Translations under genes and position numbers: made by a program | Shown: piece by piece, positions 31,665 to 49,428 of the stretch | Numbering within the stretch: the stretch's first letter is position 1 | How the letters are laid out: every line of letters begins with the position of its first letter | Notes under the pieces: generated by a model | Seen by the model: only the letters and a program-made list of their open reading frames with translations | Database searches by the model: none | Told to the model about the DNA's origin: nothing | From: a virus | Taxonomy: Duplodnaviria > Heunggongvirae > Uroviricota > Caudoviricetes | Virus record (IMG/VR): IMGVR_UViG_3300028832_000129 | Location: 11,528 to 75,527 of that record | Direction: 5' to 3' (one strand) | Length of the DNA stretch: 64,000 nucleotides

Positions 31665-32015
31665 ATGCTTGTATATGTACCGAATTTTATTACCCTATTG
31701 CGACAGAGGTATTCTACTCTGAAGTTGCCTGGCGGCATCCATTATGATAATTCTGCAGTGCTGTGTCGCATGCAGTATGAGGTGCGCCTTGAGAAGAAGG
31801 TAGGCTCGAAAACTATCGTCGTGGAACTCGTGGCAAGATACGGTAAAGTCGAATTCCGGAAGCCGTTCACCGAGGATTTCTTGACAACTGGAGACCCGTC
31901 AAAGGTGATGGAGAAAATCAACGAGTATGCTGACGATGGATACGTCGTGTCGCATCAGACGCTGATGTACGGGGCGTCTGACAGCTGCGCCTATACACCA
32001 ACGAGTAGAATGTAA
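31665..32015 (+). CDS. Hypothetical protein, 116 aa.
   Basis: Intact ORF immediately after the paralog. Confidence 0.45.
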   Translation: MLVYVPNFITLLRQRYSTLKLPGGIHYDNSAVLCRMQYEVRLEKKVGSKTIVVELVARYGKVEFRKPFTEDFLTTGDPSKVMEKINEYADDGYVVSHQTLMYGASDSCAYTPTSRM

Positions 32016-32431
32016 CGAAAATTTTACACATTTTTCTTGCATTTTCCCTTGCCATTTCATTCGTTTTTATCTACTATTGCTATAAACATTACGTCAAAGG
32101 AATTAAAGATGCTAAAGCAACTCAACAATCTGTGCAAATTAACAGCTGCGGCCCAGGACGCACGTTATTTTGGCATTTTGGGTTTCGCAGGAAAAGCGGA
32201 GGCTGATGCAACTTAGTTCCAGGTAGACGAAAAGGTTTACGAGAGACGAAAAGGGCGGTTGCATCAGCAGGCAACCGCCCTTTCCGTTTAACCATTCGGG
32301 GGCGCATGTTCCAAGGTGGCGAATGATGCTGGCAGCATCGTTGAGAAGGATTCGATTTCCTTCGCTTCCATTAAAGCAAGGCTCGAGCAGCCTTGCGGTA
32401 GATTGACAGTTCGGATGCGATATGTTTTATG

Positions 32432-32504
32432 GGCCATTAGCTCAGTTGGTAGAGCGCCTGATTTGCACTCAGGAGGTCATCGGTTCGACCCCGATATGTG
32501 TCCA
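32432..32504 (+). tRNA. tRNA-Ala(TGC)-like. The acceptor stem is imperfect.
   Basis: GGGCCATTAGCTCAGTTGGTAGAGCG CCTGA-TTTGCAC-TCAGG ..ATCGG-TTCGACC-CCGAT. The 3' acceptor ATGTGTC pairs poorly with the 5' GGGCCAT. Preceded by the repeated 20-mer AGATTGACAGTTCGGATGCG. Confidence 0.5.
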
Positions 32505-32595
32505 GTATAATATGGGCTGCTAGAAGCAAGGGTAGCCAGCAACTACCCGATGGGCACTGCCTGGACAGATAGTAATCTATCCGTATTCCTAGGAA

Positions 32596-32697
32596 CCAAC
32601 CGTCGCCGTTGCCGGCGGCAGTGTTCCGACATGATGGGATAAGGACATTACGGGACTGGGGTCCATGCGAGGCCGGTTCGATTCCGGTGCGGTCCAC
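32596..32697 (+). ncRNA. tRNA-like element: canonical T-arm plus 3' acceptor, with the 5' partner unresolved.
   Basis: ...GCCGG-TTCGATT-CCGGT-GCGGTCC-A. No clean complementary 5' acceptor was found by eye. May be a degenerate or split tRNA. Confidence 0.25.
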
Positions 32698-32704
32698 TAT
32701 TTCG

Positions 32705-32775
32705 GGTCATTAGTTCAATGGTAGAATTCCCGGTCCGCATCCGGGGGATACCGGTTCGACCCCGGTATGTATCCA
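32705..32775 (+). tRNA. tRNA with an atypical anticodon loop TCCGCAT (anticodon CGC?). The acceptor stem is imperfect.
   Basis: GGGTCATTAGTTCAATGGTAGAAT..CCCGG-TCCGCAT-CCGGG..ACCGG-TTCGACC-CCGGT-ATGTATC. Shares the same acceptor oddity as 32432. Confidence 0.4.
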
Positions 32776-32791
32776 TTAGTTTGTTTGTATT

Positions 32792-32865
32792 CTCATCTAT
32801 ATCAACTGGTTAGATAGTCGCTCTGATAAGGCGGAGGTTCTTGGTTCGAGTCCAAGGGTGAGAAC
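32792..32865 (+). tRNA. tRNA-Ile(GAT).
   Basis: Acceptor TCTCATC/GGTGAGA, anticodon arm TCGCT-CTGATAA-GGCGG, T-arm CTTGG-TTCGAGT-CCAAG. Confidence 0.75.
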
Positions 32866-32872
32866 TATCATG

Positions 32873-32946
32873 CCACTGTAGCTCAGTCCGGTAGAGCGGG
32901 GGCCTGAAGAGCCCCGCGTCGAAGGTTCGATTCCTCCCGGTGGCAC
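32873..32946 (+). tRNA. tRNA-Phe(GAA).
   Basis: GCCACTGTAGCTCAGTCCGGTAGAGC G GGGGC-CTGAAGA-GCCCC ..GAAGG-TTCGATT-CCTCC-CGGTGGC. Confidence 0.85.
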
Positions 32947-33029
32947 TAAAATATGTTCGACAAATATATGAATGACATAATGAACAAAATTATGTATTTT
33001 TATATAAGGTTTATCGAAGAGTTGACAAT

Positions 33030-33767
33030 ATGAACTATAGACATATTTACTTAAACATTATCTTCCGTGCGCAAAATGATTATTTATCACGGTTAAAATT
33101 GAAGAAACATGGGATGTATTTTGAAAAGCACCATGTTCTCCCGCGGTCATTAGGTGGTAAAAATATCGCAAGTAATATAGTCTTATTGACGGGGAGAGAA
33201 CATTTTATTTGCCATTGGTTGTTGTTTAAAATGTTTAATAAGGGGACTATAGAGAGGAGCAAGATGCTATTTGCTTTATGGTGTATGAAATCGATTGAAC
33301 GCGGTCATACAGGAAGATATATTAATGCGAGAACATATGAATATATTCGGGCCGAGTTTGCGAGTATGGTAGGCCAGCTTAACTCAAAGCTGCAATCAGG
33401 TAGCCAAAATTCGCAATATGGAAAAATATGGTATACTAATGCATACACTGGTGCATCCACGTCATCCATAATTCCGTTAAAATATCCTTGGTATAAAGGC
33501 CGTAGACTGTTTCGCGGGGAAACAATGGTACTATTTAATAAAACCCAGCAATGTAGTATGATTCTGGCCAAACAAATATGGGACTTATTTCATAGTGGAA
33601 ACTACACATCATTTAGTGAGTTTACCAGCATGACTAATTTGCCGTTAAAGCGGCCTGGTATTCTGGCATTATTTAATAAATATGTGCCAATATCACGAAC
33701 TTTATGGAAGGATTCCACTAAGCCAAAACAGTCGGACAGTGCATATGTTGGACGATACTATAAATAA
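33030..33767 (+). CDS. HNH homing endonuclease.
   Basis: EKHHVLPRSLGGKNIASNIVLLTGREHFICH is an HNH motif. The gene sits in an AT-rich islet (32950-33890) inside the tRNA array. Confidence 0.75.
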   Translation: MNYRHIYLNIIFRAQNDYLSRLKLKKHGMYFEKHHVLPRSLGGKNIASNIVLLTGREHFICHWLLFKMFNKGTIERSKMLFALWCMKSIERGHTGRYINARTYEYIRAEFASMVGQLNSKLQSGSQNSQYGKIWYTNAYTGASTSSIIPLKYPWYKGRRLFRGETMVLFNKTQQCSMILAKQIWDLFHSGNYTSFSEFTSMTNLPLKRPGILALFNKYVPISRTLWKDSTKPKQSDSAYVGRYYK

Positions 33768-33892
33768 GAATTCCAGCATTATATAATAGGTATTAATATA
33801 TTTAGGGTGAATGTCACGATGAACGCAGCGTGTCATCCCGTAATACTGACTCGTTTGACTAACCAATATAAGTTTAACCCAGTAATTATTAT

Positions 33893-33965
33893 TCCACCTT
33901 AGCTCAGTTGGTAGAGCACCCGACTGTTAATCGGGTCGTCCCTGGTTCGAGTCCAGGAGGTGGAG
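33893..33965 (+). tRNA. tRNA-Asn(GTT).
   Basis: TCCACCTTAGCTCAGTTGGTAGAGCA CCCGA-CTGTTAA-TCGGG..CCTGG-TTCGAGT-CCAGG-AGGTGGA. Confidence 0.85.
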
Positions 33966-33969
33966 CTAT

Positions 33970-34055
33970 GCCGGTTTCGCCTAGCGGTCAATGGCAGGAG
34001 GCTGTAACCCTCCCGTTCTCACGAACTTCCGGTGGTTCGAATCCATCAGCCGGCA
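33970..34055 (+). tRNA. tRNA-Tyr(GTA), class II with a long variable arm.
   Basis: Acceptor GCCGGTT/AGCCGGC. Anticodon arm GGAGG-CTGTAAC-CCTCC. Variable stem-loop CGTTC-TCAC-GAAC. Confidence 0.8.
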
Positions 34056-34069
34056 CTATATATTCTTAT

Positions 34070-34144
34070 GCGGCATTAGCTCAGTTGGCTTAGAGCGCAA
34101 CCTTGCCATGGTTGAGGTCACGAGTTCGATTCTCGTATGCCGCT
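34070..34144 (+). tRNA. tRNA-Gly(GCC).
   Basis: GCGGCATTAGCTCAGTTGGCTTAGAGCG CAACC-TTGCCAT-GGTTG..ACGAG-TTCGATT-CTCGT-ATGCCGC. Confidence 0.85.
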
Positions 34145-34147
34145 TAC

Positions 34148-34220
34148 TGCCCGTTCGCCAAGTTGGTAAGGCACACGACTCTGACTCGCGCATTCGGTGG
34201 TTCGAGTCCATCACGGGCAA
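34148..34220 (+). tRNA. tRNA-Gln(CTG).
   Basis: Very close to the E. coli tRNA-Gln architecture: TGCCCGTTCGCCAAGTTGGTAAGGCA CACGA-CTCTGAC-TCGCG CATTC GGTGG-TTCGAGT-CCATC ACGGGCA. Confidence 0.75.
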
Positions 34221-34224
34221 CTAC

Positions 34225-34304
34225 CTCGACGTGGGGGAACTGGTAGACCCGCCGGCTTCAGGAGCCGGTGCATTTGCGTGCAAGTCCGAGTCTTGCCGTC
34301 GAGA
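34225..34304 (+). tRNA. tRNA-Leu(CAG).
   Basis: Acceptor CTCGACG/CGTCGAG. Anticodon arm CCGGC-TTCAGGA-GCCGG. T-arm GCAAG-TCCGAGT-CTTGC. Extra arm present. Confidence 0.75.
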
Positions 34305-34317
34305 CTAATGGAAACTC

Positions 34318-34401
34318 CGGCGATTGCTGGAATAGGTAGACAACCCGGTCTTAAAAACCGGGGCACTTGCGTGCGTATCGGTTCGAGCCCGATATCGCCG
34401 A
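34318..34401 (+). tRNA. tRNA-Leu(TAA).
   Basis: Acceptor CGGCGAT/ATCGCCG. Anticodon arm CCCGG-TCTTAAA-CCGGG. Long variable arm. T-arm ATCGG-TTCGAGC-CCGAT. Confidence 0.8.
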
Positions 34402-34485
34402 TAGGAGGTACACACGATGAAGAAGATTCTTAAACGCACCCGATTATGATGGTTGCAGTTGCCATGCTCTTATCAACTGCACTCT

Positions 34486-34557
34486 GCGGGTGTAGCTCAG
34501 AGGAAGAGCAACGTACTTTTAATACGTGGGTCGGGATTTCGAAATTCCCCACCCGCA
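34486..34557 (+). tRNA. tRNA-Lys(TTT).
   Basis: GCGGGTGTAGCTCAGAGGAAGAGCA ACGTA-CTTTTAA-TACGT..TTCGAAA..CACCCGC. Confidence 0.8.
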
Positions 34558-34561
34558 CTAT

Positions 34562-34633
34562 GCGAATATGGTGTAATTGGCAACACGACAGCCCTCCAAG
34601 CTGTAGTTTCCGAATCGTTGTCGGATATTCGCT
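34562..34633 (+). tRNA. tRNA-Gly(TCC) with a non-canonical T-loop.
   Basis: Acceptor GCGAATA/TATTCGC. Anticodon arm ACAGC-CCTCCAA-GCTGT. T-arm TCCGA-ATCGTTG-TCGGA has a perfect stem but an unusual loop. Confidence 0.65.
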
Positions 34634-34639
34634 TATCAT

Positions 34640-34715
34640 CCCCGGGTAGCCGAACTGGCATAGGCGGGCGATTCAAAATCGCCGACATCTGAAGGTTCGA
34701 TTCCTTCTCCGGGGA
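34640..34715 (+). tRNA. tRNA with anticodon CAA (Leu-type anticodon) but a short variable loop, which is atypical.
   Basis: Acceptor CCCCGGG/TCCGGGG. Anticodon arm GGCGA-TTCAAAA-TCGCC. 7-nt variable region. T-arm GAAGG-TTCGATT-CCTTC. Confidence 0.55.
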
Positions 34716-34725
34716 CTAAACGATT

Positions 34726-34799
34726 GGCGGCATAGCTCAATGGATTAGAGCGACAGATTTCTAATCTGTTGGTTCCAAGTTCGAGTCTTGGTGTCGTCA
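34726..34799 (+). tRNA. tRNA-Arg(TCT).
   Basis: GGCGGCATAGCTCAATGGATTAGAGCG ACAGA-TTTCTAA-TCTGT..CCAAG-TTCGAGT-CTTGG-TGTCGTC. Confidence 0.8.
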
Positions 34800-34803
34800 T
34801 AAT

Positions 34804-34874
34804 TGGCTTATGGTGTAGAGGTAGCACGGGTGGTTTTGAGCCATCAGGGCTGGGTTCGAGGCCTGGTTGGCCAA
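34804..34874 (+). tRNA. tRNA-Gln(TTG).
   Basis: Acceptor TGGCTTA/TTGGCCA with one mismatch. Anticodon arm GGTGG-TTTTGAG-CCATC. T-arm CTGGG-TTCGAGG-CCTGG. Confidence 0.6.
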
Positions 34875-34877
34875 TAT

Positions 34878-34959
34878 CCCGCAGTGGCGGAACTGGTAGA
34901 CGCGTGCGCCTTAGGAGCGCATGCCGAAAGGTGTGCAGGTTCGAGTCCTGCCTGCGGGA
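34878..34959 (+). tRNA. tRNA-Leu(TAG).
   Basis: Perfect acceptor CCCGCAG/CTGCGGG. Anticodon arm TGCGC-CTTAGGA-GCGCA. Long variable arm. T-arm GCAGG-TTCGAGT-CCTGC. Confidence 0.85.
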
Positions 34960-34978
34960 CTAAACAAAGGAGGAATAT

Positions 34979-35416
34979 ATGAGAAGACTGTTCATCATTC
35001 GCAAGGACCTGGACTTGTCCAAGGGAAAGCTTTCGGCGATGGTAGCCCATTGCGCCGAAGGTTTCTGGACACGCCTCATCTCCCGAAGTGCGACGAAGGA
35101 AGGCGACTCATACTCCGTCAAGTTCGAACTGGATTCAGCCACGATGGACGAGTATGTCCGCGGGCTGTTCGTTAAGACCGTGTGCGAGGCGAAGAACCTC
35201 ACCCACCTCATGAAGGTGGAGGAAGTCGCCAAGGGGTTCGGCCTTGTCGAGAATGTAGACTACGGCTTCATCGACGACGCGTGTCTTACCGAGCTTACCC
35301 CGGAGTCGACCGACGAGAACGGCAACGGCTACTGTAGGGTGGGCATCTGGTTCAGGCCGCTGCCGGACGACGTGAGCCATGCCCTCAGCAGGAAGTACCA
35401 GCTTTTCCGGGGATGA
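34979..35416 (+). CDS. Peptidyl-tRNA hydrolase, PTH2 family.
   Basis: Strong AAAGGAGGAATATATG RBS. N-terminus RLFIIRKDLDLSKGKLSAMVAHCAEG matches the Pth2 signature (..vvR.Dl.mgkGKiaAQ.aHAa). Collinear mid and C-terminal blocks. Embedded between tRNA genes. Confidence 0.7.
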   Translation: MRRLFIIRKDLDLSKGKLSAMVAHCAEGFWTRLISRSATKEGDSYSVKFELDSATMDEYVRGLFVKTVCEAKNLTHLMKVEEVAKGFGLVENVDYGFIDDACLTELTPESTDENGNGYCRVGIWFRPLPDDVSHALSRKYQLFRG

Positions 35417-35425
35417 CCCGGGATA

Positions 35426-35507
35426 TGTCGGGGTGGTGGAATTGGTAGACGCGCTGGTCTGAGAGGCCAGTGGGGAGACCCGTGCAGGTTCAAGTCCTGT
35501 TCCCGAC
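35426..35507 (+). tRNA. tRNA-Leu(GAG).
   Basis: Acceptor GTCGGGG/TCCCGAC. Anticodon arm CTGGT-CTGAGAG-GCCAG. Long variable arm TGGGGAGACCCGTG. T-arm GCAGG-TTCAAGT-CCTGT. Confidence 0.85.
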
Positions 35508-35513
35508 ACTATA

Positions 35514-35587
35514 CGCACTCGTAGCCAAGTGGATTAAGGCGGGGGCCTGCAAAGCCCCCATGCGGGGGTTCGAGTCCCTCCGAGTGC
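35514..35587 (+). tRNA. tRNA-Cys(GCA).
   Basis: GCACTCGTAGCCAAGTGGATTAAGGCG GGGGC-CTGCAAA-GCCCC..GGGGG-TTCGAGT-CCCTC-CGAGTGC. Confidence 0.85.
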
Positions 35588-35629
35588 TCTATTTGACCAT
35601 GTTTAGCAGAAAGGACTCCACTCGGGTCG

Positions 35630-35645
35630 ATTTTTGCTATATTTG
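35630..35645 (+). promoter_or_regulatory. Phage promoter motif TTTTTGCTATATTTGG.
   Basis: Exact motif at the start of a ~450-nt ORF-free structured region. Confidence 0.5.
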
Positions 35646-35703
35646 GTTAGCAAGAATTTCGTGCCAAGATATAAACAAAAACCACCAGGTTGACGTTTTT
35701 GCA

Positions 35704-35720
35704 GAAAATTGCTATATTTG
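35704..35720 (+). promoter_or_regulatory. Phage promoter motif AAAATTGCTATATTTGG.
   Basis: Second motif copy 60 nt downstream of the first. Followed by the repeated 20-mer AGATTGACAGTTCGGATGCG at 35751. Confidence 0.5.
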
Positions 35721-36088
35721 GTACACCGGGAAGCCCGTGAGGTTCCCCAGAAGATTGACAGTTCGGATGCGTTTCCTTTGCAGTTCGGGTTAAACTGCGC
35801 GTTGCAACCAACGATAGGTTGCTCGCATTTTGAAGATTTTACGAAATCTTACCCCGGCGGGAGGCGTCCCGCCCGAAGCCACGCGCTTTGGCGTGGTGGA
35901 ATACCTTTAGCATAAACGTGAGTGCGCCCGGGTTCGCAACCGGGAGGTGTCTTCTGCTCAGGAAGGCAAGGGAAATTAACTAATGAGTTCGGCGTGAGCC
36001 GGGACGGGCGGACGTATAGGGCTAGTTCCATTGCCCTTCTCCTTTTTGGTTGTGTCGAGGTCCCCCGTCCCGCTCGCGCCGTTCGCAT

Positions 36089-36161
36089 GGCGATGTCGTC
36101 TAGAGGCCTAGGACACAGGATTTTCATTCCTGGAACTCGGGTTCGAATCCCGGCATCGCTA
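36089..36161 (+). tRNA. tRNA-Glu(TTC).
   Basis: Glu-type D-arm TCGTCTAGAGGCCTAGGAC. Anticodon arm CAGGA-TTTTCAT-TCCTG. T-arm TCGGG-TTCGAAT-CCCGG. Acceptor GGCGATG/CATCGCT with G1·U72. Confidence 0.75.
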
Positions 36162-36169
36162 CTAATCAT

Positions 36170-36242
36170 CGCGGGATGGAGCAGTTGGTAGCTCGCGAGG
36201 CCCATAACCTCGAGGTCGTCGGTTCGAGTCCGACTCCCGCTA
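36170..36242 (+). tRNA. tRNA-Met(CAT), initiator-like.
   Basis: CGCGGGATGGAGCAGTTGGTAGCTCG CGAGG-CCCATAA-CCTCG AGGTC GTCGG-TTCGAGT-CCGAC TCCCGCT. Closely parallels E. coli tRNA-fMet, including an unpaired position 1-72. Confidence 0.75.
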
Positions 36243-36250
36243 CGAAACAT

Positions 36251-36355
36251 TGCCAAATGGCGGAAAGTGCATCGACGATGCCGTTAGACGCAGGGGAATC
36301 TAAGTCCCCGGCCCTCGCGCGAAAGGGTGTCCAGGTTCGAGTCCTGGTTTGGTAA
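36251..36355 (+). tRNA. Atypical long tRNA-like gene with a CUA (amber-reading) anticodon arm.
   Basis: Acceptor TGCCAAA/TTTGGTA (7 bp incl. G·U). T-arm CCAGG-TTCGAGT-CCTGG. Perfect anticodon arm GGGGA-ATCTAAG-TCCCC (anticodon CTA at 36300-36302). A ~16-nt palindromic hairpin (GCATCGACGATGC) is inserted in the D-region. Total ~105 nt. Confidence 0.4.
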
Positions 36356-36380
36356 CTATGATTTTGCCGTCGCTAAGACT

Positions 36381-36454
36381 GGGTGGGTAAGCTCAGGTGG
36401 TAGAGCTCGGGTGGAAAACAACCCGGGACACCGGTTCGAGTCCGGTTCTGTCCT
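36381..36454 (+). tRNA. tRNA-like or pseudo-tRNA with a possible 8-nt anticodon loop.
   Basis: D-arm TAAGCTCAGGTGGTAGAGCT and T-arm ACCGG-TTCGAGT-CCGGT are canonical. The acceptor GGGTGGG/TCTGTCC is mostly G·U. The anticodon stem CGGGT/ACCCG encloses GGAAAACA. Confidence 0.3.
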
Positions 36455-36579
36455 GTTGATTGCGGCGGAAGTGCCGGGAAGACGTCCCCGGCGCGGCGCT
36501 ATTAAGTCATTTTCGGATTAGGGCCCCGACGCACCAGCAAAACCGTTTGGTACCTATAGAAAATGACCGCCGTTCCCAT

Positions 36580-36668
36580 GGCCACGTAGCTTAGCAAGGT
36601 GGACGAGGCCTCGTCAGAGCGCCCGGCTAACCAGGCCGGGAGACGCCGGTTCGATTCCGGCCGTAGAT
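36580..36668 (+). tRNA. tRNA-like element with a hairpin insertion. Not resolvable by eye.
   Basis: 5' GGCCACG-TA-GCT..., a perfect inserted palindrome GACGAGG/CCTCGTC, CCCGGC-TAACCAG-GCCGGG arm and T-arm GCCGG-TTCGATT-CCGGC. The 3' acceptor does not pair cleanly. Confidence 0.25.
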
Positions 36669-37273
36669 TGGGACGGCAAACCTTTAACGACACAGTCGCC
36701 TGTTAGGCGAACCGCCCGAGAGCATGTTCCTGCTGCCGTATAATTTTCCGGCGGACGCTCTAGGGGGTCAGCAAAATGATGCCGTGTGTTAGGACGCACT
36801 TGGCAGCATAGAGAAGGTGGTCTCCGGAGGCCGGCGGACTCAGTCCCTGTTTCCGGTATGTGCTCTAGGGTAACGGCCGAACATGAAATCCCGTGGGCCG
36901 ACCCGTGACGGGGAATTAACGAAAGTCACGGAAGGCCCGGCGTGATTCTCGCGGGAGACGGCTGTGTCATACGTTTAGGCGCAAAGGGAGTTCCTATTGA
37001 AACTTCCAACAACAGTGACTTACTCCCAGCGCTTGCTTTTAGACACCAAGGCGGTTCCTACCCAAAGCTTGGTCTGCAAAACCGATTTACCGCCAGTGTC
37101 GCTTTTAAATGTGTACCCGGACGTATTTTTCGTTGTGGGTTGATGATTTGTGCCAATCCGAGTACATGAATTTGCGTGCCCAAACGAAGTTCCTCGTTTG
37201 ATGGTTGACTTACTTCCCGGGCACGCATTTTGTTTGATGAGTGCTAGAACGGTTGCTGATTTAGTTCATCTTT

Positions 37274-37348
37274 GCTCTCGTCGTCTAATGGAATTAGGAT
37301 TACGAGAATCCGAATCTTGTGATAGCAGTTCGAATCTGCTCGAGAGTA
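37274..37348 (+). tRNA. tRNA-Arg(CCG)-like.
   Basis: Acceptor GCTCTCG/CGAGAGT (G1·U72). Glu-like D-arm. Anticodon arm CGAGA-ATCCGAA-TCTTG. T-arm AGCAG-TTCGAAT-CTGCT. Confidence 0.55.
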
Positions 37349-37371
37349 CTATATTACCGTAGGAGATTTCA

Positions 37372-38232
37372 ATGAAGCGGAAATATATGCAAGTTACCAA
37401 GCAGCATCCCAAATTTAGGGCACTGATTACGCCATATGATGACTATCATTCGGCTGGCCCACGATTAAAATCTGATGGCCGGATGTATATAGATATACTA
37501 AAGAATGAAACGGATTGCTTTCTCGGTATGCTATATGCTCGGTATTTATTGGAAGTGAAGTTAGGACGGCGCTTGAGGGATGGTTATGTAGTAGACCATA
37601 TCGATGGGTGTAGCTGGAATGATGATATGACGAATTTACAGGAAATTCCTGCTGCTGATAACGAAAGAAAGGGAATATCTGGAATTAGGCTAGACATGCA
37701 ACACGCTCGCACGTTCATACAGATAAAATGCCCTTGGTGTGGTACATGGTTTGAAAAGCAGAAAACATCTATTAACGGTAAATTATCGTTTTGCTCAAGG
37801 GCATGCGTGTCGAAATATTATAGGTCGGACCGGGCATGCAAAAATGAAACGCGTACTATGCGGGCCGTGCCTGCACCGGATAGCAGCATAGTTCCTAAAC
37901 GCTATTCTGTTCCGTTCGAACAAGTATCTACTGTGTATTTTTATAGTGTCCGTGTTCCGACGTGTCTATGCGGTAATCCGATTTCTTCGAAGTCAAGCAT
38001 ATACTGTGACCAATGCTTGGATATGAAGGTAAAAGCTACCGTGGAACAAGCTGATATGGAAAGAAAAGCTATTGCGGACCGTATACGGTTGATATATCAA
38101 GAAGAAGGCAAAGTGCCTATGTGCAAGCTAGCTGGATACATGGGTTATAGTGACAAAGGACTTGCGAAGGCAATACTTAGGTTATTCGGTAAGCCGCATA
38201 AAGAGGTAATCAATTCGATATGCGGAAAATGA
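37372..38232 (+). CDS. HNH endonuclease (AP2/HNH_3-like homing endonuclease).
   Basis: YVVDHIDGCSWNDDMTNLQEIPAADNERKG is an HNH motif. Multiple CxxC pairs follow. AT-rich gene adjacent to tRNAs. Confidence 0.65.
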   Translation: MKRKYMQVTKQHPKFRALITPYDDYHSAGPRLKSDGRMYIDILKNETDCFLGMLYARYLLEVKLGRRLRDGYVVDHIDGCSWNDDMTNLQEIPAADNERKGISGIRLDMQHARTFIQIKCPWCGTWFEKQKTSINGKLSFCSRACVSKYYRSDRACKNETRTMRAVPAPDSSIVPKRYSVPFEQVSTVYFYSVRVPTCLCGNPISSKSSIYCDQCLDMKVKATVEQADMERKAIADRIRLIYQEEGKVPMCKLAGYMGYSDKGLAKAILRLFGKPHKEVINSICGK

Positions 38233-38255
38233 TGACAAATAAAATTTTGGCGTAA

Positions 38256-38418
38256 GCAAGGCCGCTTGTACATGTATCCAGGTTCAGGTACTTCCTGCTC
38301 GAACATCAAGAACCGGGGCATACGCCATTACCATTAGAAAGGGTTGACATTGGCAAGGCCGCTTGTTCTGCATCCAGGTTCAGGTACTTCCTGCGAACAT
38401 CAAAATACGGGGCATGTG
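38256..38418. repeat. Pair of ~65-nt direct repeats (38256-38323 and 38353-38418) separated by a TTGACA-containing spacer.
   Basis: GCAAGGCCGCTTGT(A/T)C(A/T)TG(T/C)ATCCAGGTTCAGGTACTTCCTGC(TC)GAACATCAA(G/A)A..CGGGGCAT occurs twice. Confidence 0.6.
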
Positions 38419-38606
38419 TCACCAGTCCAGCCGGGAGGACGCTCCCGGACGTAGCTCCACCCTGACGCCGTTACCTCCCCTGGTAGAAAACACGGCTATA
38501 CGGGTTCCGACCCGCCTAAGGTACAATATGGCGGGGTGCCGGGCAACACCGGTATCGTATGGTGCGGACGGATTTCCGCTCTCCGGGTGTGTGAGCGGAA
38601 CCTTTT

Positions 38607-38679
38607 TCCGGCTTAGCTCAGCTGGTAGAGCACATCATTCGTAATGATGGGGTCCGCCGTTCGAGCCGGCGAGCCGGAG
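38607..38679 (+). tRNA. tRNA-Thr(CGT).
   Basis: TCCGGCTTAGCTCAGCTGGTAGAGCA CATCA-TTCGTAA-TGATG GGGTC CGCCG-TTCGAGC-CGGCG AGCCGGA. Confidence 0.85.
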
Positions 38680-38776
38680 CGAACATTGAGATAGAATGGC
38701 TACCGCGCGTCTGAGATTTCTGGATATTCGCGTGGCAAGTTCCTTGGCCCGACAGGAATCTAGGGTCATGCTCTTC

Positions 38777-39135
38777 GGGGGTGCTTGGTTTCGACTGGGC
38801 ATCGGACTGTGGAGACCTCACACGAAGTTGGTCTGTGGCTTCGTAAAAACGGACCGAAAAGATAAATGCTGACAATGCATTCGCCTACGCCGTTGCTGCT
38901 TAATCGGTAGCACGCCGTTGCCCGGGTCAAGTGGGATGAATAAAGCCCGGGACCAAGTAGATAAGTCCCGAATTTAGCCGTGAGTTACTGGTCGTAGACC
39001 GGCTATCTTACACTGGACCAGGACCCCTCAAGGATACATCTCCCCGGGCAACAGGTCAGGGCCCAAAACGATGGATTGTGATACGGTTGAAACGGAATGG
39101 CGTTTAGGACAGGGGTTCGACTCCCCTCACCTCCA
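38777..39135 (+). ncRNA. ssrA: tmRNA (transfer-messenger RNA).
   Basis: 5' GGGGGTGCTTGGTTTCGACTGGGC parallels E. coli GGGGCTGATTCTGGATTCGACGGG. 3' tRNA-like domain GGACAGGGGTTCGACTCCCCTCACCTCCA (T-arm plus acceptor pairing with the 5' GGGGGTG). Internal tag reading frame GCT GAC AAT GCA TTC GCC TAC GCC GTT GCT GCT TAA = ADNAFAYAVAA-stop at 38868-38903. Length 359 nt. Confidence 0.8.
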
Positions 39136-39380
39136 CGAAATTTACGTCCTGCTGCCGGTAGGACCGCCCTTCAGCACGGGGTAGAACGCGAGTACGACCA
39201 TGGGTGTGGCCGGCTTGCGCGAAGGCGGTGGACTAAAATCTTGGCACGATGCCATATCACCAATCCCACTCCGGGAAAGGTTGCAGGCGTGTAGCCGCGT
39301 ACCGGCCACGCGAGCGTAAAGCGGTAAGGGCCCGCTAATAGGCCCAGTGTGTTTGAAAAGTCTCGACGGTGATGAGGTAA

Positions 39381-39397
39381 TTGTCCTATATTTGAAT
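39381..39397 (+). promoter_or_regulatory. Promoter motif variant TTGTCCTATATTTGAAT.
   Basis: Matches the TATATTTG core inside the ORF-free region between the tmRNA and the next tRNA block. Confidence 0.35.
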
Positions 39398-39847
39398 ATG
39401 GCGTAGTCTGGCTCATTTAGAAGCCATAAAACATACCAAATCAACACTTTGGGTGGACATCGCCTAGCATAAGTTGCGGAACAGTGGCTAGGGTAACTTT
39501 CTGGTAATCCTAGTAATGCGCCGTCGAGACTCTTAGTTTGGGTGTACCCGTGATTAGCCTAGGTTTAAATTGCGGGAGCCCATTAGGGACGCGCCGGGTA
39601 TGCACCGGCAAGCCCCGACGTCGGGTGCGCCCGTCGAAACGACGTAAAACAAGACAGAGTGCGGCTACGTCCTGGTAACGTGGAGCATTAAGGACCCGTT
39701 GGCCACACTGGTTACAGTGGCCTAGCCGGCTGGGAGTTAGCCGGATGGTTTCCGCATCGGCGGAATGAGTACAGTCCCCGCAAGGACACCGAGAGGGAAC
39801 TGGGCGATGACGCGTTCTAGAAGCTAGGATATCGCCGTTCCCACCAT

Positions 39848-39924
39848 GTTGCGGTAGCTTAATGGTTAGCGCATGCCTGGACTGCAGCCGGCATGAGATG
39901 GTGGTCCGAATCCACCCCGTGACA
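39848..39924 (+). tRNA. tRNA-like gene with an extended or bulged anticodon stem. Identity unresolved.
   Basis: Acceptor GTTGCGG/CCGTGAC (two G·U). D-arm TAGCTTAATGGTTAGC. T-arm GGTGG-TCCGAAT-CCACC. Central CATGCC(T)GG-ACTGCAG-CCGGCATG helix. Confidence 0.35.
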
Positions 39925-39938
39925 CTAACAGAAATTTT

Positions 39939-40014
39939 GGACCGGTAGCTCAGTTGGTCTTAGAGCAGCTGACTCATAACCAGCGGGTCCCTGGTTCAAA
40001 TCCAGGCCGGTCCA
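39939..40014 (+). tRNA. tRNA-Met(CAT), elongator or lysidine-Ile type.
   Basis: Perfect acceptor GGACCGG/CCGGTCC. Anticodon arm GCTGA-CTCATAA-CCAGC. T-arm CCTGG-TTCAAAT-CCAGG. Confidence 0.8.
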
Positions 40015-40024
40015 CTACTGTTTC

Positions 40025-40100
40025 GCCTCCTTAGCTCAGTAGGATTTAGAGCGTCGCGCTACGAACGCGGAGGTCCCAGGTTCGAGCCCTGGAGGAGGTA
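40025..40100 (+). tRNA. tRNA-Arg(ACG).
   Basis: GCCTCCTTAGCTCAGTAGGATTTAGAGCG TCGCG-CTACGAA-CGCGG AGGTC CCAGG-TTCGAGC-CCTGG AGGAGGT. Confidence 0.8.
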
Positions 40101-40313
40101 CTAAAATCCTGGTCTTCTAAATGAGCCTACGCTAAAAACGGGGGTGCTTAGGAATCCGGCGGCAGATGGGCGGGCGACGGCCGGCCAAATACCGCGGGCG
40201 ATGCTGGTTCTACTAACTCCAGCGCAGGTCGCGTTTCATGGTGCGCATAGCTCAACTGGTAGAGCCACGGCTTGTGGAGCCGTACGTTGTCGGTTCGAAA
40301 CCGGCTGTGCACC
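40040..40313 (+). tRNA. tRNA-His(GTG), with an encoded G-1.
   Basis: G-GTGCGCA TA GCTC AACTGGTA GAGC C ACGGC-TTGTGGA-GCCGT ... GTCGG-TTCGAAA-CCGGC TGTGCAC C. The extra 5' G pairs with the C73 discriminator, as is typical of tRNA-His. Confidence 0.85.
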
Positions 40314-40329
40314 CTACACTTCTCATCTT

Positions 40330-40402
40330 GTCTCGATAGTTAAACAGGATATAACTAGTCCCTCCTAAGGACTGATTCCACGTTCGAGTCGTGGTCGGGA
40401 TA
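40330..40402 (+). tRNA. tRNA-Arg(CCT).
   Basis: Acceptor GTCTCGA/TCGGGAT (two G·U). Anticodon arm AGTCC-CTCCTAA-GGACT. T-arm CCACG-TTCGAGT-CGTGG. Confidence 0.75.
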
Positions 40403-40413
40403 CTAAGACATAA

Positions 40414-40502
40414 GGAGGGTTGGCAGAGTTGGTCTATCGCACCCCGGTGCTAACGGGGAGGGGCCCAAAAAGCCCCCACAGGTTCGAATCCTGTACCCTC
40501 CT
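40414..40502 (+). tRNA. tRNA-Ser(GCT), class II.
   Basis: Acceptor GGAGGGT/ACCCTCC. Anticodon arm CCCCG-GTGCTAA-CGGGG. Long variable arm AGGGGCCCAAAAAGCCCCC. T-arm ACAGG-TTCGAAT-CCTGT. Confidence 0.85.
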
Positions 40503-40534
40503 CTACAGAATAAACTTCGTAACTGGAGTAAATT

Positions 40535-40831
40535 ATGGACATCACGTCGTTTTCTATATGGAAATTCAGGTTTATCGAAGGGTACCTGCAGGATATGCAC
40601 GCGTACGACGTGCATACCACGAAGTATGTCGACCACCGGACGTCGGATACAGCATGGATTAGGTATGACACCGCCAAGGATGTCGCCACTATCGAGCGGG
40701 AGGGCCTCACGCTGGACTGCAAGTTCGGCGAACTTGAAAAGACACTGAAGGACCTCGGGATGTACCGGGAGCGGCCATTGGGCGAGAGACACAGCCTGGC
40801 CGGACCGCAGCATGACGAGGAGAAACCGTAG
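40535..40831 (+). CDS. Hypothetical protein, 98 aa.
   Basis: Intact ORF following the tRNA block. Two further tiny ORFs (28-aa basic peptide at 40850-40936; ~53-aa Cys-rich zinc-ribbon-like peptide from ~40953) follow and are not listed separately. Confidence 0.4.
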   Translation: MDITSFSIWKFRFIEGYLQDMHAYDVHTTKYVDHRTSDTAWIRYDTAKDVATIEREGLTLDCKFGELEKTLKDLGMYRERPLGERHSLAGPQHDEEKP

Positions 40832-41124
40832 AGGTATCAATGAAAGGCGTATCACTAAAGTCAAACCCCGCGTTCGAGCGGGCTTTGAAGCGTTTCCTGC
40901 GGGAGCAGAAACGGAAGAAAAAGTAGCATGGCGGAGGACCTATGGTAACATGCGATATTTGCGGGGAACCGCGTGAGTGCAAGATGTACAGGTGCACGTT
41001 CGGCCAGTATACCGAATTCATGTGCCTCTGTGACGATTGCGTGAAGGTGCAGGAGAAGGAAGGCCCGGTTGTCGAGGACAAGTCGTGCAGCCCGGGATAT
41101 TAACCAATCAAAAAGGAGTCTACC

Positions 41125-41382
41125 ATGACCAAAGAAGAAGTTTCCAAGAAGGTTATCGCGCACATCGCACGACTTCTCGGCATGCAACAGCATGAAGTGA
41201 AGCCCGAGAGCCTCGTAGGAGCTGACCTCGGGGCCGATTCACTCGACCTGGTAGAGATTGTCATGGCGGTCGAGGACGAATTCGAAATCGAGGTTCTCGA
41301 CAGCGAGATGGCAATGCTTTCGACCGTGCAGGACTGGATTAACCTGGCCGCCGAAAAGGTCGGCGCACAAAATAAAGATTAA
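41125..41382 (+). CDS. Acyl carrier protein.
   Basis: AAAAGGAG RBS. DLGADSLDLVEIVMAVEDEFEIE is the canonical ACP helix II with the phosphopantetheinylated Ser in the DSL motif. 85 aa. Confidence 0.8.
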   Translation: MTKEEVSKKVIAHIARLLGMQQHEVKPESLVGADLGADSLDLVEIVMAVEDEFEIEVLDSEMAMLSTVQDWINLAAEKVGAQNKD

Positions 41383-41387
41383 GGACG

Positions 41388-41461
41388 CGGGGTGTAGCTC
41401 AGCCTGGTAGAGCGCATGCCTTGGGCGCATGAGGCCGTGGGTTCGAATCCCGCTACCCCGA
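41388..41461 (+). tRNA. tRNA-Pro(TGG).
   Basis: C1-G72 acceptor CGGGGTG/TACCCCG. Anticodon arm CATGC-CTTGGGC-GCATG. T-arm GTGGG-TTCGAAT-CCCGC. Confidence 0.8.
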
Positions 41462-41753
41462 GTATCCCACAGAATTTTCGCGCCGATTCCCCTAGAATAT
41501 TCACCCGGCGCGAACATGGGAGCCCGACCATGGATAAGACGGGCAGCATTGAGATTGCCGCCGCATTGATTAAATTGGGTTCAAGTCCCGGCGGTCGGGA
41601 AAGTGTACGCGAGTCCACCGGTACCGGCAGCCAAGAAGGAAACAGGATTCCCGGCGGCATGGCACTAAACTGTCTGCCACAGAAATGACGGTGAGACCTT
41701 CGGCAGTTAATACGGGAAAGTCCAGGAGATGTCTTTTGGTAAAGCTGCCATTT

Positions 41754-41826
41754 TCCGGTGTAGCTCAGTTGGTAGAGCACCCGATTTGTAATCGGGCGGT
41801 CGGGAGTTCGAGCCTCTCCACCGGAG
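41754..41826 (+). tRNA. tRNA-Thr(TGT).
   Basis: TCCGGTGTAGCTCAGTTGGTAGAGCA CCCGA-TTTGTAA-TCGGG CGGTC GGGAG-TTCGAGC-CTCTC CACCGGA. Confidence 0.85.
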
Positions 41827-41835
41827 CTAACTTAT

Positions 41836-41908
41836 GGCCTCGTCGAATAATGGCTAGTTCGCTGCCCTCTCAAGGCGGAAATTCGGGTTCGAAACCCGAC
41901 GTGGCTAC
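41836..41908 (+). tRNA. tRNA-Glu(CTC), copy 1.
   Basis: Glu-type D-arm TCGAATAATGGCTAGTTC. Anticodon arm CTGCC-CTCTCAA-GGCGG. T-arm TCGGG-TTCGAAA-CCCGA. Acceptor GGCCTCG/CGTGGCT with one mismatch. Confidence 0.6.
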
Positions 41909-41931
41909 TACAGGAAAACAAGCTAATTTAT

Positions 41932-42004
41932 GGCTCCGTCGAATAACGGTTCAGTTCGTCGCCCTCTCAAGGCGGAAATTCGGGTTCGAGTCCCGACGGG
42001 GCTA
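41932..42004 (+). tRNA. tRNA-Glu(CTC), copy 2 (tandem near-duplicate).
   Basis: GGCTCCGTCGAATAACGGTTCAGTTCG TCGCC-CTCTCAA-GGCGG AAAT TCGGG-TTCGAGT-CCCGA CGGGGCT. Confidence 0.6.
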
Positions 42005-42020
42005 CTAAGGAGAAAACACG

Positions 42021-42494
42021 ATGCATACATTGCACTTGATGATTGGCATTCCCGGGTGCGGCAAGTCTACGTACGCCAGGAAACTCGCGGAGTATACCGG
42101 GGGACGCATAGTGTCGTCCGACGGAATCCGCAAGGAGCTCACGGGTACCGAAGAATACCTGTATCCCGAGCTGAACACGAAGGTGTTCGGCATTTTCGAG
42201 TCCCGGGTCGCGGAATGGATTAAGGACACCGACGTGATAGCGGACGCCACCAACATACACGTGAAGGACTGGAAGAAGTACGTCGGCCTGTGCCCGGAAG
42301 GGACCGTGGCCAAGGCTTACTGGTTCCTCGTAGGTCCGGACATAGCCATGGAGAGGATGGAAGGGCGCGACCGCAAGGTCCCGAGGGAAGTCGTTGAGCG
42401 CATGTGGGAAACCATGTTCCAGAACAGGAAGTACCTCCCGGAATATTTCAAGGAAGGCTGCATACAGATAATCAATCCGGACGAAAAGATATAG
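42021..42494 (+). CDS. P-loop polynucleotide-kinase-like protein (AAA_33/PNK family).
   Basis: AGGAGAAAACACGATG RBS. Walker A MIGIPGCGKSTYA followed by SSDGIRKEL, as in the T4 Pnk kinase domain. 157 aa kinase-only architecture. Adjacent to the tRNA genes. Confidence 0.55.
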   Translation: MHTLHLMIGIPGCGKSTYARKLAEYTGGRIVSSDGIRKELTGTEEYLYPELNTKVFGIFESRVAEWIKDTDVIADATNIHVKDWKKYVGLCPEGTVAKAYWFLVGPDIAMERMEGRDRKVPREVVERMWETMFQNRKYLPEYFKEGCIQIINPDEKI

Positions 42495-42518
42495 TTTGTT
42501 GGCAAAAGAGAGGTTACA

Positions 42519-42707
42519 ATGAAGAAGCACAAGACGGAATTCGTGGAAGAGACAGAAGAACAGAAGCAGGCCCGCTGGGACAAGCAGAAGAAGGCTGCCA
42601 GGGGCATGGCCAAGCTGTGCGGCATCGACCTCAAGAAGCTCGCCAAGGAACGTGAACGCAATTACCGGGAGAAGATGTCCCTGAACGGCTCCCGATACAG
42701 TTACTAG
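42519..42707 (+). CDS. Small basic hypothetical protein, 62 aa.
   Basis: AGAGAGGTTACAATG RBS. Lys/Arg-rich. Confidence 0.35.
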   Translation: MKKHKTEFVEETEEQKQARWDKQKKAARGMAKLCGIDLKKLAKERERNYREKMSLNGSRYSY

Positions 42708-42715
42708 GGACTACC

Positions 42716-42798
42716 GGAGGGTTAGGCTAACTGGTAAGTCAGCGGTCTTGAAAACCGCCGCGGGAAACTGCTTGGGGGTTCGAGTCCCTCACCCTCCG
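42716..42798 (+). tRNA. tRNA-Ser(TGA), class II.
   Basis: Acceptor GGAGGGT/ACCCTCC. Anticodon arm GCGGT-CTTGAAA-ACCGC. Long variable arm. T-arm GGGGG-TTCGAGT-CCCTC. Confidence 0.8.
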
Positions 42799-42835
42799 CG
42801 AATTTTACGCATCCGGAACTGTCCGTAAATTTCCA

Positions 42836-45960: not shown

Positions 45961-46281
45961 ATGATTAAGGAAAAGATTTACAGGCTGATGTTCCATAACT
46001 TTATCAGTAACCGAATCCGCCAGATTGCGTGCGGGTGGCGCCGAGAGCTCCGCCACGGCGTGTCCATCTGGTACAAGCCGGTGAAGCACTATCCGGGCTA
46101 CGGGGACTACGACTACGAGCCGATGTTCGAGCGCGCCGTGCGCACCGTCAGGCAGAACCGGAAGAAGTTCCCGGGAAAGCGCGTGGCCGTCGAGGTCGAG
46201 GTGTTCTACTCGGGCGGACGCCCGGGCATCGGTACCAGGCTGGTACAGTACAGAATCAAGCCGTACAGGAAAGTGTTCTAG
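45961..46281 (+). CDS. Hypothetical protein, ~106 aa.
   Basis: ATG at 45961 (MIKEKIYRL). The track's GTG at 45916 overlaps the promoter motif. Confidence 0.4.
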   Translation: MIKEKIYRLMFHNFISNRIRQIACGWRRELRHGVSIWYKPVKHYPGYGDYDYEPMFERAVRTVRQNRKKFPGKRVAVEVEVFYSGGRPGIGTRLVQYRIKPYRKVF

Positions 46282-48171: not shown

Positions 48172-49428
48172 ATGGAAGAAATGGTTATCAAGGAAGCGGC
48201 CGAGCTGCCGCAGGTTGCAGAAGGATTGAAGCTCGCCAGGGCCATTAACGACCTTGGTTACGAGGCATACCTTGTTGGCGGTTGCGTAAGGGACCTTGCC
48301 CGCTGGAAGCTCGGGCTGGACTCCGAGCCGGGAATCCACGACGTTGACCTGGCAACGAACATGCCGGCGGACGAGATGGCGAAACACTTCAGGACGGCCA
48401 GCAACAACGGCGAGAAGCACGGTACGATACTGGTGTTCATGGACGGCGAGCCTTTCGAGGTGACGAGGTTCCGTGCGGACGGGGACTACAGCGACGGGAG
48501 GCACCCGGACTCGGTGGCGTTCGCCGATACATTCGAGGAGGACACCAGACGGCGCGACTTCACTATGAACGCCATGGGCATGGACGCCGACTGCAGGATA
48601 GTCGACTATCACGGCGGAGTGGAGTCGATACGCTCGGGGGTCCTTTCTACCGTGGGCGACCCGGTGGACCGTTTCAACGAGGACGCGCTGAGGATACTCC
48701 GTGCAGGCAGGTTTTCCTCCAAGTTCGGTATGAAGCCCGACCTGGTGATGAACTCGGCATGCCACGCGCTTGCCACGCGGCTGAAGTTCCTTTCGATGGA
48801 GCGGGTACACGACGAGTTCACCAAGTGTTCCACGGCGAAGGCGTTCGCCGGCATGATGCACTTCCTCGAGGACGGCATAGGCAAGGTGCTATCCGACGCT
48901 ATAGACTGGAAGGCCGCCGCCAGGGCCGTGGACAACTGGGCGGTATACCACCAGAAGCCATGGGACACGGTGACGGGTATGGCGATACTGTTCATGTCGT
49001 GCAGGTCGATGGCCGAGTTCGAGATGCGCAAGTTCAAGTGCACCGTAGAGGAAATAGACGCGTACAAGTACGCCAAGGTCATGACGATGGAATACCAGTC
49101 CGGGAGGATGGACCTTGTCGGGATGGTGGACCTGGTCGAGAACCGCAGGTGGCCGTATTTCGTCGGCGTGGTCAACGCGTATGGCGGGAAGTGTGCAATC
49201 GACTCCGCGCAGGAGGAGAAGCTCCTGTCGATGGGGAGGTCGTACCCTACGCCCAAGGACATATCGTCGGCGATGAAGGATGCCGGTGTCGAACAGGGGC
49301 CGCTGTTCGGCCGGATACTCCGCCGGGTGCGGCTCTGCGTCTACAAGCGGAAGGTGGCTGGACGCGGCGCGGTAGACCGGGAGTATCTCGATAAACTGGT
49401 TGCCGAAGTAATAAAAGAGTGCAGCTAA
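48172..49428 (+). CDS. cca: tRNA nucleotidyltransferase (CCA-adding enzyme).
   Basis: Head-domain motifs LVGGCVRDL and HDVDLAT, plus the class II signature RRDFTMNA. 418 aa. Confidence 0.8.
   Translation: MEEMVIKEAAELPQVAEGLKLARAINDLGYEAYLVGGCVRDLARWKLGLDSEPGIHDVDLATNMPADEMAKHFRTASNNGEKHGTILVFMDGEPFEVTRFRADGDYSDGRHPDSVAFADTFEEDTRRRDFTMNAMGMDADCRIVDYHGGVESIRSGVLSTVGDPVDRFNEDALRILRAGRFSSKFGMKPDLVMNSACHALATRLKFLSMERVHDEFTKCSTAKAFAGMMHFLEDGIGKVLSDAIDWKAAARAVDNWAVYHQKPWDTVTGMAILFMSCRSMAEFEMRKFKCTVEEIDAYKYAKVMTMEYQSGRMDLVGMVDLVENRRWPYFVGVVNAYGGKCAIDSAQEEKLLSMGRSYPTPKDISSAMKDAGVEQGPLFGRILRRVRLCVYKRKVAGRGAVDREYLDKLVAEVIKECS

Follow-up and report, generated by a model that had tools for sequence, protein, structure and literature searches.

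A complete one-piece tmRNA gene in the tRNA array of a presumed uncultured large phage

A stretch of 64,000 nucleotides (the window; positions 11,528 to 75,527 of the IMG/VR virus record IMGVR_UViG_3300028832_000129) holds, within an array of tRNA genes of a presumed uncultured large phage, a complete, full-length, one-piece gene for transfer-messenger RNA (tmRNA, ssrA). ARAGORN called the gene at 38777-39136 on the plus strand with the tag ADNAFAYAVAA*, the coding part being nucleotides 92-127 of the gene, and the Rfam model RF00023 matched 38777-39138 (+) over all of its positions (1-374/374) with 101 bits and an E value of 2.6e-38. The gathering cut-off of this model is 47 bits, and a call of this type in the window is far beyond chance. 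An earlier note on this DNA, made from the letters alone, had proposed a tmRNA with this tag at 38777-39135, with an in-frame tag ending in AVAA-TAA at 38868-38903, and had named ARAGORN and Rfam as the means of checking it. Both programs bear it out, the covariance-model match being strong and the ARAGORN coding part falling on the same positions, and the coordinates of the note are exact to the base, with 38777 as nucleotide 1 and 39135 as the discriminator A.

Pattern scans recovered the same tmRNA at 16 further loci, 14 on metagenome contigs and two on IMG/VR viral contigs (L008, 224 kb, and L009, 203 kb; related loci are cited below by such numbers). The 17 loci yield a family of 14 distinct sequences, whose identity to the window copy is 79-96% and whose RF00023 scores are 101-112 bits, all above the threshold. 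In an alignment on the structure, including pseudoknots PK1 to PK3, 97.1% of 1225 cells were paired, compared with 33-50% when the partners were slid by 1-3 columns. Changes on both sides of a pair, of the compensatory kind, occurred in 10 tmRNA pairs and 0/500 shuffles reached the observed values; as the family members are related, the shuffle statistics overstate independence, and the slid-partner controls and the distinct types of compensatory pair are more reliable. The tags of the family (ANDAFACRMAA, ADNAFACRMAA, ANNAYACRMAA, ADNAFAYAAAA and ADNAFAYAVAA) share a length of 11 residues, the start A[DN][DN]A[FY]A and an AA end. A search of IMG/VR for the exact tag peptide, made with a degenerate pattern, gave no match. 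The compensatory changes across most helices, together with the conserved tag frame, argue for selection on tmRNA function itself. The analysis demonstrates what the RNA is, how it folds and that it is conserved under structural constraint, and on the evidence of the aligned sequences the elements needed for alanylation and trans-translation are all present and maintained by selection. The family has, in addition, a mosaic allele structure.

The elements of the molecule are listed in Table 1 with the other features of the locus. The 5' and 3' ends that the earlier note had taken as the two halves of a tRNA-Ala-like domain are both present and pair with each other, and the third pair, G3:U70, which is the identity pair of alanyl-tRNA synthetase (AlaRS), is G:U in 14/14 family sequences. 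The discriminator is a purine. The encoded continuation after it is CGA (39136-39138) and not CCA, the relatives having CGA or CTA; since CCA is not encoded by the gene, it must be added post-transcriptionally. An unencoded CCA is also common among bacteria (PMC5143459). The T arm is invariant across the family, and its support is therefore that of pairing only, as for PK1, in which all 11 pairs are present in 14/14 sequences and the region is near-invariant. Helix 2 is paired in 100% of cells and has two pairs with compensatory changes. The resume codon GCU is preceded by GAAAAGAUAAAU and aligns with the Rfam consensus ...AAUAAnUGCn. The earlier note had allowed that its AVAA frame might be coincidental if pseudoknot and resume context were absent; PK1 and the context GAUAAAU directly followed by GCU were found. 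In helix 5 there are two compensatory pairs, and the strand opposite the tag changes along with the differing 3' codons of the tag. PK2 is 100% paired, its stem 2 with two compensatory pairs, and in stem 1 of PK3 two pairs swap between C-G and G-C in 7/14 sequences. The lower score of PK3 stem 2 arises because its second allele, UGGAU/AUCCA, lies out of register in the alignment.

Table 1. Features of the window and of related loci (window positions unless a locus number is given)
Feature	Position	Strand	Remarks
tmRNA gene	38777..39135	+	first nucleotide to discriminator A; ARAGORN, RF00023
Acceptor stem, 5' strand GGGGGUG	38777..38783	+	7 bp with 39128-39134 (CACCUCC; gene nt 352-358)
Helix 2, 5' strand	38795..38822	+	pairs with 39077-39107; joins tRNA-like domain to pseudoknot ring
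PK1	38823..38855	+	stems of 5 bp (CGAAG/CUUCG) and 6 bp (GGUCUG/CGGACC); directly 5' of resume codon region
Tag reading frame	38868..38903	+	resume GCU 38868-38870; ADNAFAYAVAA (11 codons); stop UAA 38901-38903
Helix 5 hairpin	38887..38918	+	contains tag 3' codons; stop codon in loop
PK2	38921..38969	+	CCCGGG/CCCGGG and GGGAU/GUCCC
PK3	38975..39021	+	UAGCCG/CGGCUA and CUGGUC/GACCAG
PK4 region	39037..39073	+	modelled as nested hairpins only
T arm of tRNA-like domain	39111..39127 (gene nt 335-351)	+	5 bp, loop UUCGACU; all standard pairs
tRNA-Thr(CGU)	38607..38680	+	upstream neighbour; conserved with L007, L006, L017
Structured leader	38700..38772	+	two hairpins and a 9-bp loop-loop pairing; ends 4 nt upstream of tmRNA nucleotide 1
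Trailer A	39147..39239	+	closed multi-branch structure after tmRNA; 29 predicted pairs, 11 with compensatory changes
Module B	39245..39375	+	conserved covarying non-coding block; terminator-like hairpin 39328-39345
NAD-dependent ligase	upstream of tRNA array		recognised gene
Homing/HNH endonuclease open reading frames	33030-33767, 46029-48119		recognised genes
Pth2-type (archaeal/eukaryotic-type) peptidyl-tRNA hydrolase	34979..35416	+	PF01981 passes the Pfam cut-off with 38 bits; weak in NCBIfam, under the curated cut-off
HNH homing-endonuclease open reading frame	37372..38232	+	absent from closest relative L007, together with tRNA-Arg(CCG)
Class II nucleotidyltransferase	48172..49428	+	best match CCA tRNA nucleotidyltransferase; NF009814, 217 bits, below 290 cut-off
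HEARO RNA	49802-50031		RF02033, 122 bits; IscB gene directly after
IscB	50089-51357		NF040563, 342 bits; RRXRR and HNH; RNA-guided nuclease element in phage genome
Exonuclease, SPFH protein	window		recognised genes
HEARO-tmRNA unit	L008 2629-3465
HEARO-tmRNA unit	L031 7827-8638
HEARO-tmRNA unit	L015 2943-3700	-
HEARO-tmRNA unit	L022 1941-2596	-

A second ARAGORN call, of a permuted tmRNA at 39044-39558 with the tag AIKHTKSTLWVDIA, overlaps the 3' end of the true gene, whose T arm it takes over, and is regarded as an artefact, because the Rfam permuted model RF04321 scored 23.7 and 22.9 bits against a cut-off of 47 and the proposed tag region (39423-39467) lies in a patch that is not conserved in the closest relative.

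The gene lies between two structured flanks. In 11 sequences of the leader, 96.4% of the cells of its 23 pairs were paired and 12 pairs showed changes on both sides; 0/500 shuffles reached these values, and slid partners gave 31-43%. A covariance model of the leader (R1) was run on 38 sources and hit 18 of them, each with a single strong copy (62-96 bits). This copy immediately precedes either a tmRNA or what is left of one, except that in L007 and L006 it immediately precedes module B; within the window the leader sequence is unique. Trailer A is present in every family member whose contig extends that far; L007 and L006 lack both it and the tmRNA. Module B occurs in these tmRNA-less relatives as well, joined there directly to the leader. 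No Rfam match was obtained for leader, trailer A or module B. The single-sequence folding energies of leader and trailer are no better than those of shuffles, and their support comes entirely from covariation. Scans for sigma-70 promoters and intrinsic terminators around the gene returned no more than in shuffles. The covarying leader and the co-inherited trailer are candidate RNA motifs and potentially new, being absent from Rfam and from the available sections of the related literature.

The earlier note had described the gene as sitting inside a phage tRNA array and not in a host-type ssrA locus, which agrees with its position within 34 tRNA genes, and as flanked by a homing endonuclease and direct repeats, which agrees only in part. 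An HNH open reading frame (ORF) is indeed nearby, but 545 nt upstream and with tRNA-Thr in between, and the direct repeats were rejected: the matches are of 10-22 nt and 77-100%, a size often reached by chance, the best of them being a pair within the tmRNA.

The boundaries of the flanks coincide with a difference between close relatives. In the closest one, L001/L007 (ligase 87% identical), the alignment with the window continues through tRNA-Thr(CGU) and about 95 nt more and then jumps to window position ~39234, with the result that L007 is without exactly 38777 to ~39233, i.e. the tmRNA and a trailer of ~95-100 nt. The same tmRNA-less layout is seen in L006, and the invariant PK1 19-mer of the family was found nowhere on the L007 or L006 contigs. 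Loss by deletion is slightly more parsimonious than gain, because more distant relatives have the tmRNA and the two nearer ones do not; the data fit equally well with recombination of the cassette between the conserved flanks.

Two further length differences were observed in this region. In most relatives the 3' end of the tmRNA is separated from trailer A by an extra insert of ~100-110 nt bounded by ATGCATGCATG...CATGCAT (L017 325-430 on the minus strand, L009, L010, L014, L015, L019, L022, L023, L026, L028, L031 and L033), which is absent from the window, L008, L011 and L030 and may be a miniature element. Compared with the closest relative, whose corresponding interval is 280 nt long, the window has an insertion at 36247-38602, with tRNA-Arg(CCG) and the HNH ORF. 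This insertion and the homing-endonuclease ORFs at 33030-33767 and 46029-48119 mark the tRNA region as an indel hotspot.

The window also carries a HEARO RNA followed by an IscB gene, and a protein identical to this IscB is found on contigs from at least five other samples. In IscB/ωRNA systems the guide is carried immediately 5' of the scaffold. The sequence at this position in the window, ...GCTGTAGGACCCATGGAGTA, is unrelated to the tmRNA. In L008, L015, L022 and L031, a HEARO scaffold without an adjacent IscB ORF was found ~140 nt upstream of an intact tmRNA. This placement in the relatives is a candidate new observation. The 5' flank of the scaffold differs among the three readable loci: it consists of the leader and ~13 nt in L031, of unrelated sequence in L015, and in L008 of the leader followed by a remnant copy of tmRNA nucleotides ~1-34. 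The remnant is intact over its last 22 nt, TTTCGACTGGGCATCGGACCAT, which agree with the tmRNA allele found in L033, L010, L026 and L023, and the tmRNA of the L008 carrier itself differs there, reading GGACATCTGACCTCATAG. These sequences suggest a mobile HEARO-tmRNA unit that possibly homes on the tmRNA gene. The idea that the HEARO-linked tmRNA is a dedicated 'immune' allele was weakened by the occurrence of the same allele without HEARO in L014 and L019.

It is tempting to speculate further that the tmRNA is the core of a clade-specific cassette, made up of the kissing-loop leader, the tmRNA and the multi-branch trailer, and that recombination between conserved RNA modules on either side would bring in or remove this cassette whole. 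In some relatives the cassette would have become target or cargo for a HEARO that lacks an ORF and has tmRNA nucleotides ~14-34 at its guide position; leader and trailer would then be new cis-acting processing or regulatory RNAs. This proposal is tentative and, taken as a whole, rather doubtful. If it is true, it would be a case of RNA-guided homing aimed at a ribosome-rescue gene.

The DNA that carries the gene has a G+C content of ~55%. A simple non-overlapping ORF call gave 70 ORFs, 45 of them on the plus strand, and most are without a family match. The tRNA genes number 34, of which 33 were called by ARAGORN and one by Rfam only; all lie on the plus strand, from 28.6 to 42.8 kb. In the 33 genes called by ARAGORN (28632-42799) CCA is never encoded, the letters after the discriminator being mostly C-T-A or C-G-A, as in the tmRNA, so that in these 3' ends only the middle C of CCA is replaced. 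The product of the nucleotidyltransferase gene, 9 kb downstream of the tmRNA, is by its sequence the likely maker of the CCA end on the tRNAs and the tmRNA. The Pth2 ORF lies inside the tRNA array and is a second gene related to translation rescue.

Several observations on the array are recorded here in their own right. The Rfam-only tRNA-like gene (39848-39924, 48 bits), missed by ARAGORN, has an unusually long anticodon stem of ~8 bp, and its L007 homologue was called as a tRNA-Ala(CGC) of 78 nt. Two tRNA-Glu(CUC) genes stand in tandem at 41836-41908 and 41932-42005, 24 nt apart. In the tRNA region of the related metagenome contig L023, a group I intron (RF00028, 55 bits) occupies 4117-4381. 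Outside the array, two large proteins with FISUMP domains (Fibrobacter succinogenes major paralogous), encoded at 24408-25922 and 29042-31648, may be receptor-binding proteins; they are the only hint, and a weak one, to the host group.

Homologues of the ligase and of a neighbouring 868-aa protein, 43-87% identical, occur on IMG/VR contigs of 52-260 kb, and on most of these the ligase is likewise followed by a tRNA array. The exact proteins of the CCA-adding enzyme and of IscB were found on several metagenome contigs. A look-up of the exact ligase protein sequence returned no record, and a tblastn comparison of two large ORFs with GenBank phages gave no homologue. The replicon probably belongs to an uncultured jumbo-phage lineage. 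The phage setting given in the earlier note is inferred from the IMG/VR relatives and the gene content, including homing endonucleases, PHROG matches and orphan ORFs, since none of the window's genes could be recognised as coding for the virion.

Comparison of the locus with 50,697 GenBank phage records, by near and distant blastn, gave either no match or only the ~35-nt T-arm/acceptor end. A scan of bacterial genomes with one pattern, GGTTTCGAC...CTTCGTAAAAAC, running from the D-loop analogue to PK1, recovered mainly tmRNAs of Chloroflexota and two of Bacillota. Their identity to the phage tmRNA is 48-53%, no higher than that between the phyla, and, unlike the phage family, they encode CCA; their tags are faintly similar, of the form (A)DNNQFAYAA. 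An origin of the phage tmRNA from Chloroflexota was dropped, the bacterial tmRNAs being no closer to it than the phyla are to each other. The scan, which was limited to a single pattern and leaves a closer bacterial relative possible, showed no sign of recent capture from a host.

With bacterial SsrA (RF00023) the molecule shares the alanine-type tRNA-like domain with G3:U70, helix 2, PK1, a GCN resume codon, a short tag ending in AA, a stop codon in the loop of helix 5 and downstream pseudoknots. It differs in lying in a phage tRNA array unlinked to smpB, in not encoding CCA, in its tag end AVAA as against the common ALAA, in that PK4 was not demonstrated, and in the structured leader and trailer at its flanks.

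The view of the earlier note that tmRNAs are uncommon in phages does not hold. They are catalogued in eight mycobacteriophages and in Bacillus phage G, with DS6A having the tRNA-like domain only (PMC4131195; PMC12484599), and Al-Shayeb et al. (2020; PMC7162821) describe metagenomic huge phages as carrying tmRNA, and SmpB in some genomes. Cluster C mycobacteriophages (Bxz1, Cali, Catera), Wildcat and phage G (PMC4131195; PMC12484599) are large phages with a tmRNA and many tRNA genes, as here. The sequence relation to the tmRNAs of cultured phages is, however, confined to the ~35-nt T-arm/acceptor end, the clade of the window being a different and uncultured one, and the phage G tag, AKLNITNNELQVA (PMC12484599), differs from ADNAFAYAVAA. 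The huge phages come closer in kind, being uncultured, larger than 200 kb and equipped with tRNA arrays, tmRNA and translation genes, with detection likewise by ARAGORN (PMC7162821); some of their genomes have SmpB as well as tmRNA, and none was seen in the window. An analysis of structure, family and flanks like the present one does not appear in the passages of that paper that were consulted. The phage tmRNA is therefore of an already known kind, in a clade without a cultured or GenBank representative.

As to its mode of action, we infer 5' and 3' processing, charging, an SmpB partner, degradation of the tagged proteins and a benefit for the phage from what is established for tmRNAs in general. 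The gene would be transcribed together with the tRNA array; host RNase P would cut the 5' end from the structured leader, and the 3' end would be trimmed to A39135 and completed with CCA by the phage or the host CCA-adding enzyme. Host AlaRS would charge the molecule with alanine by way of G3:U70, and SmpB, presumably that of the host or one encoded outside the window, would bring it to ribosomes stalled on truncated mRNAs. Translation would resume at GCU (38868), add A-DNAFAYAVAA and end at UAA, freeing the ribosome, and the non-polar ...VAA end would mark the truncated protein for C-terminal-specific proteases of the ClpXP or Tsp type. The benefit is probably extra ribosome-rescue capacity during infection, the need for which may come from non-stop complexes produced by the phage takeover (mRNA decay, heavy late translation) or by host defences. 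The 34 tRNAs, the CCA-adding enzyme and Pth2 that the phage brings along point to an investment in productive ribosomes.

That an uncultured jumbo phage carries a functional one-piece tmRNA as part of a translation toolkit of 34 tRNAs, a CCA-adding enzyme and Pth2 is considered probable. Several results weigh against it. PK1 is without covariation support because its region is invariant, and rests on pairing and position; a fourth pseudoknot was not demonstrated in 39037-39073 by structure modelling. PK2 to PK4 of tmRNAs are replaceable. The tag ends in AVAA (MAA or AAA in relatives) and not in the canonical LAA. With two SmpB queries, for which the positive controls worked, tblastn detected no smpB in the 64 kb of the window or at the phage loci; at the control bacterial loci L055 and L040 the same program placed smpB next to the tmRNA. 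Neither PHROGs nor Pfam, nor tblastn against phages, nor searches of PDB sequences with the large ORFs brought to light a gene for capsid, portal or terminase in the window. Lastly, the gene is accessory or dispensable, since the two close relatives L007 and L006 are without it at the same site.

The divergent tag and the missing SmpB could be read otherwise. The RNA might serve to manipulate trans-translation of the host, by competing for SmpB and stalled ribosomes, by adding a divergent tag (…AVAA, …RMAA) that adaptors or proteases of the host treat differently, with the effect that proteins made in infected cells are spared or degraded to the advantage of the phage, or by replacing a host tmRNA inactivated by a defence system or by the phage. 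Such a role would suit a tag unlike the canonical …ALAA whose ends vary (YAVAA, YAAAA, CRMAA) while the fold is kept, and, as no phage SmpB was seen, the RNA must use that of the host; moreover, the DS6A tmRNA, reduced to the tRNA-like domain, has been discussed as an SmpB titrator (PMC4131195). However, the window gene is of full length with intact resume context, frame and stop, none of which a pure sponge would need. Ends of the non-polar-AA type are also within the natural range of tmRNA tags, that of Caulobacter ending in …AVAA, and manipulation is judged unlikely. Were the tmRNA mainly selfish cargo of a recombining RNA cassette (tmRNA and trailer A, sometimes with an IscB guide RNA) that passes from one related phage to another through recombination or RNA-guided homing, and of little or no benefit to the phage, its presence or absence exactly at module boundaries, the mosaic alleles, the HEARO-spacer-tmRNA unit with three different 5' flanks and the L008 remnant at the guide position would find an explanation, as would the neighbourhood rich in homing endonucleases. 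Yet the compensatory changes and the conserved tag frame speak of selection on tmRNA function beyond transmission, the window copy has no adjoining HEARO, and mobility and usefulness are compatible with each other; the cargo explanation is therefore regarded as very unlikely.

The lack of a recognised virion or packaging gene in 64 kb raises the question whether the window is viral at all, or comes from a bacterial chromosome, from a megaplasmid or from some other large extrachromosomal element whose own ssrA this would be. Some large putative plasmids carry similar suites of translation genes, as stated by Al-Shayeb et al. (PMC7162821). Against such a replicon stand the related contigs, which are IMG/VR viral genomes of 117-260 kb that share the layout of ligase and tRNA array, the lack of smpB beside ssrA, unlike L055 and L040, the arrangement of 34 tRNAs in one co-oriented CCA-less array amid homing endonucleases, the predominance of orphan ORFs, and an identity of only ~50% to the bacterial tmRNAs sampled. 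A non-viral source is thus hardly to be expected, and a phage-borne, functional tmRNA is the reading preferred here.

The leads concerning the flanks and HEARO leave the basic classification unchanged: the gene encodes a tmRNA. The IscB guide RNA beside the tmRNA in relatives offers a lead on RNA-guided nucleases that move RNA genes between phages. The absence of CCA from the 34 tRNAs and the tmRNA, while the phage carries its own CCA-adding enzyme and Pth2, suggests a coordinated, phage-controlled module of maturation and rescue. For the role that tmRNAs play in phages the clade provides a natural comparison, in that close jumbo-phage relatives differ by exactly the tmRNA and its trailer, together with 14 sequence variants in which the fold is kept and the tag drifts at the end that serves as degradation signal (VAA, AAA, MAA).

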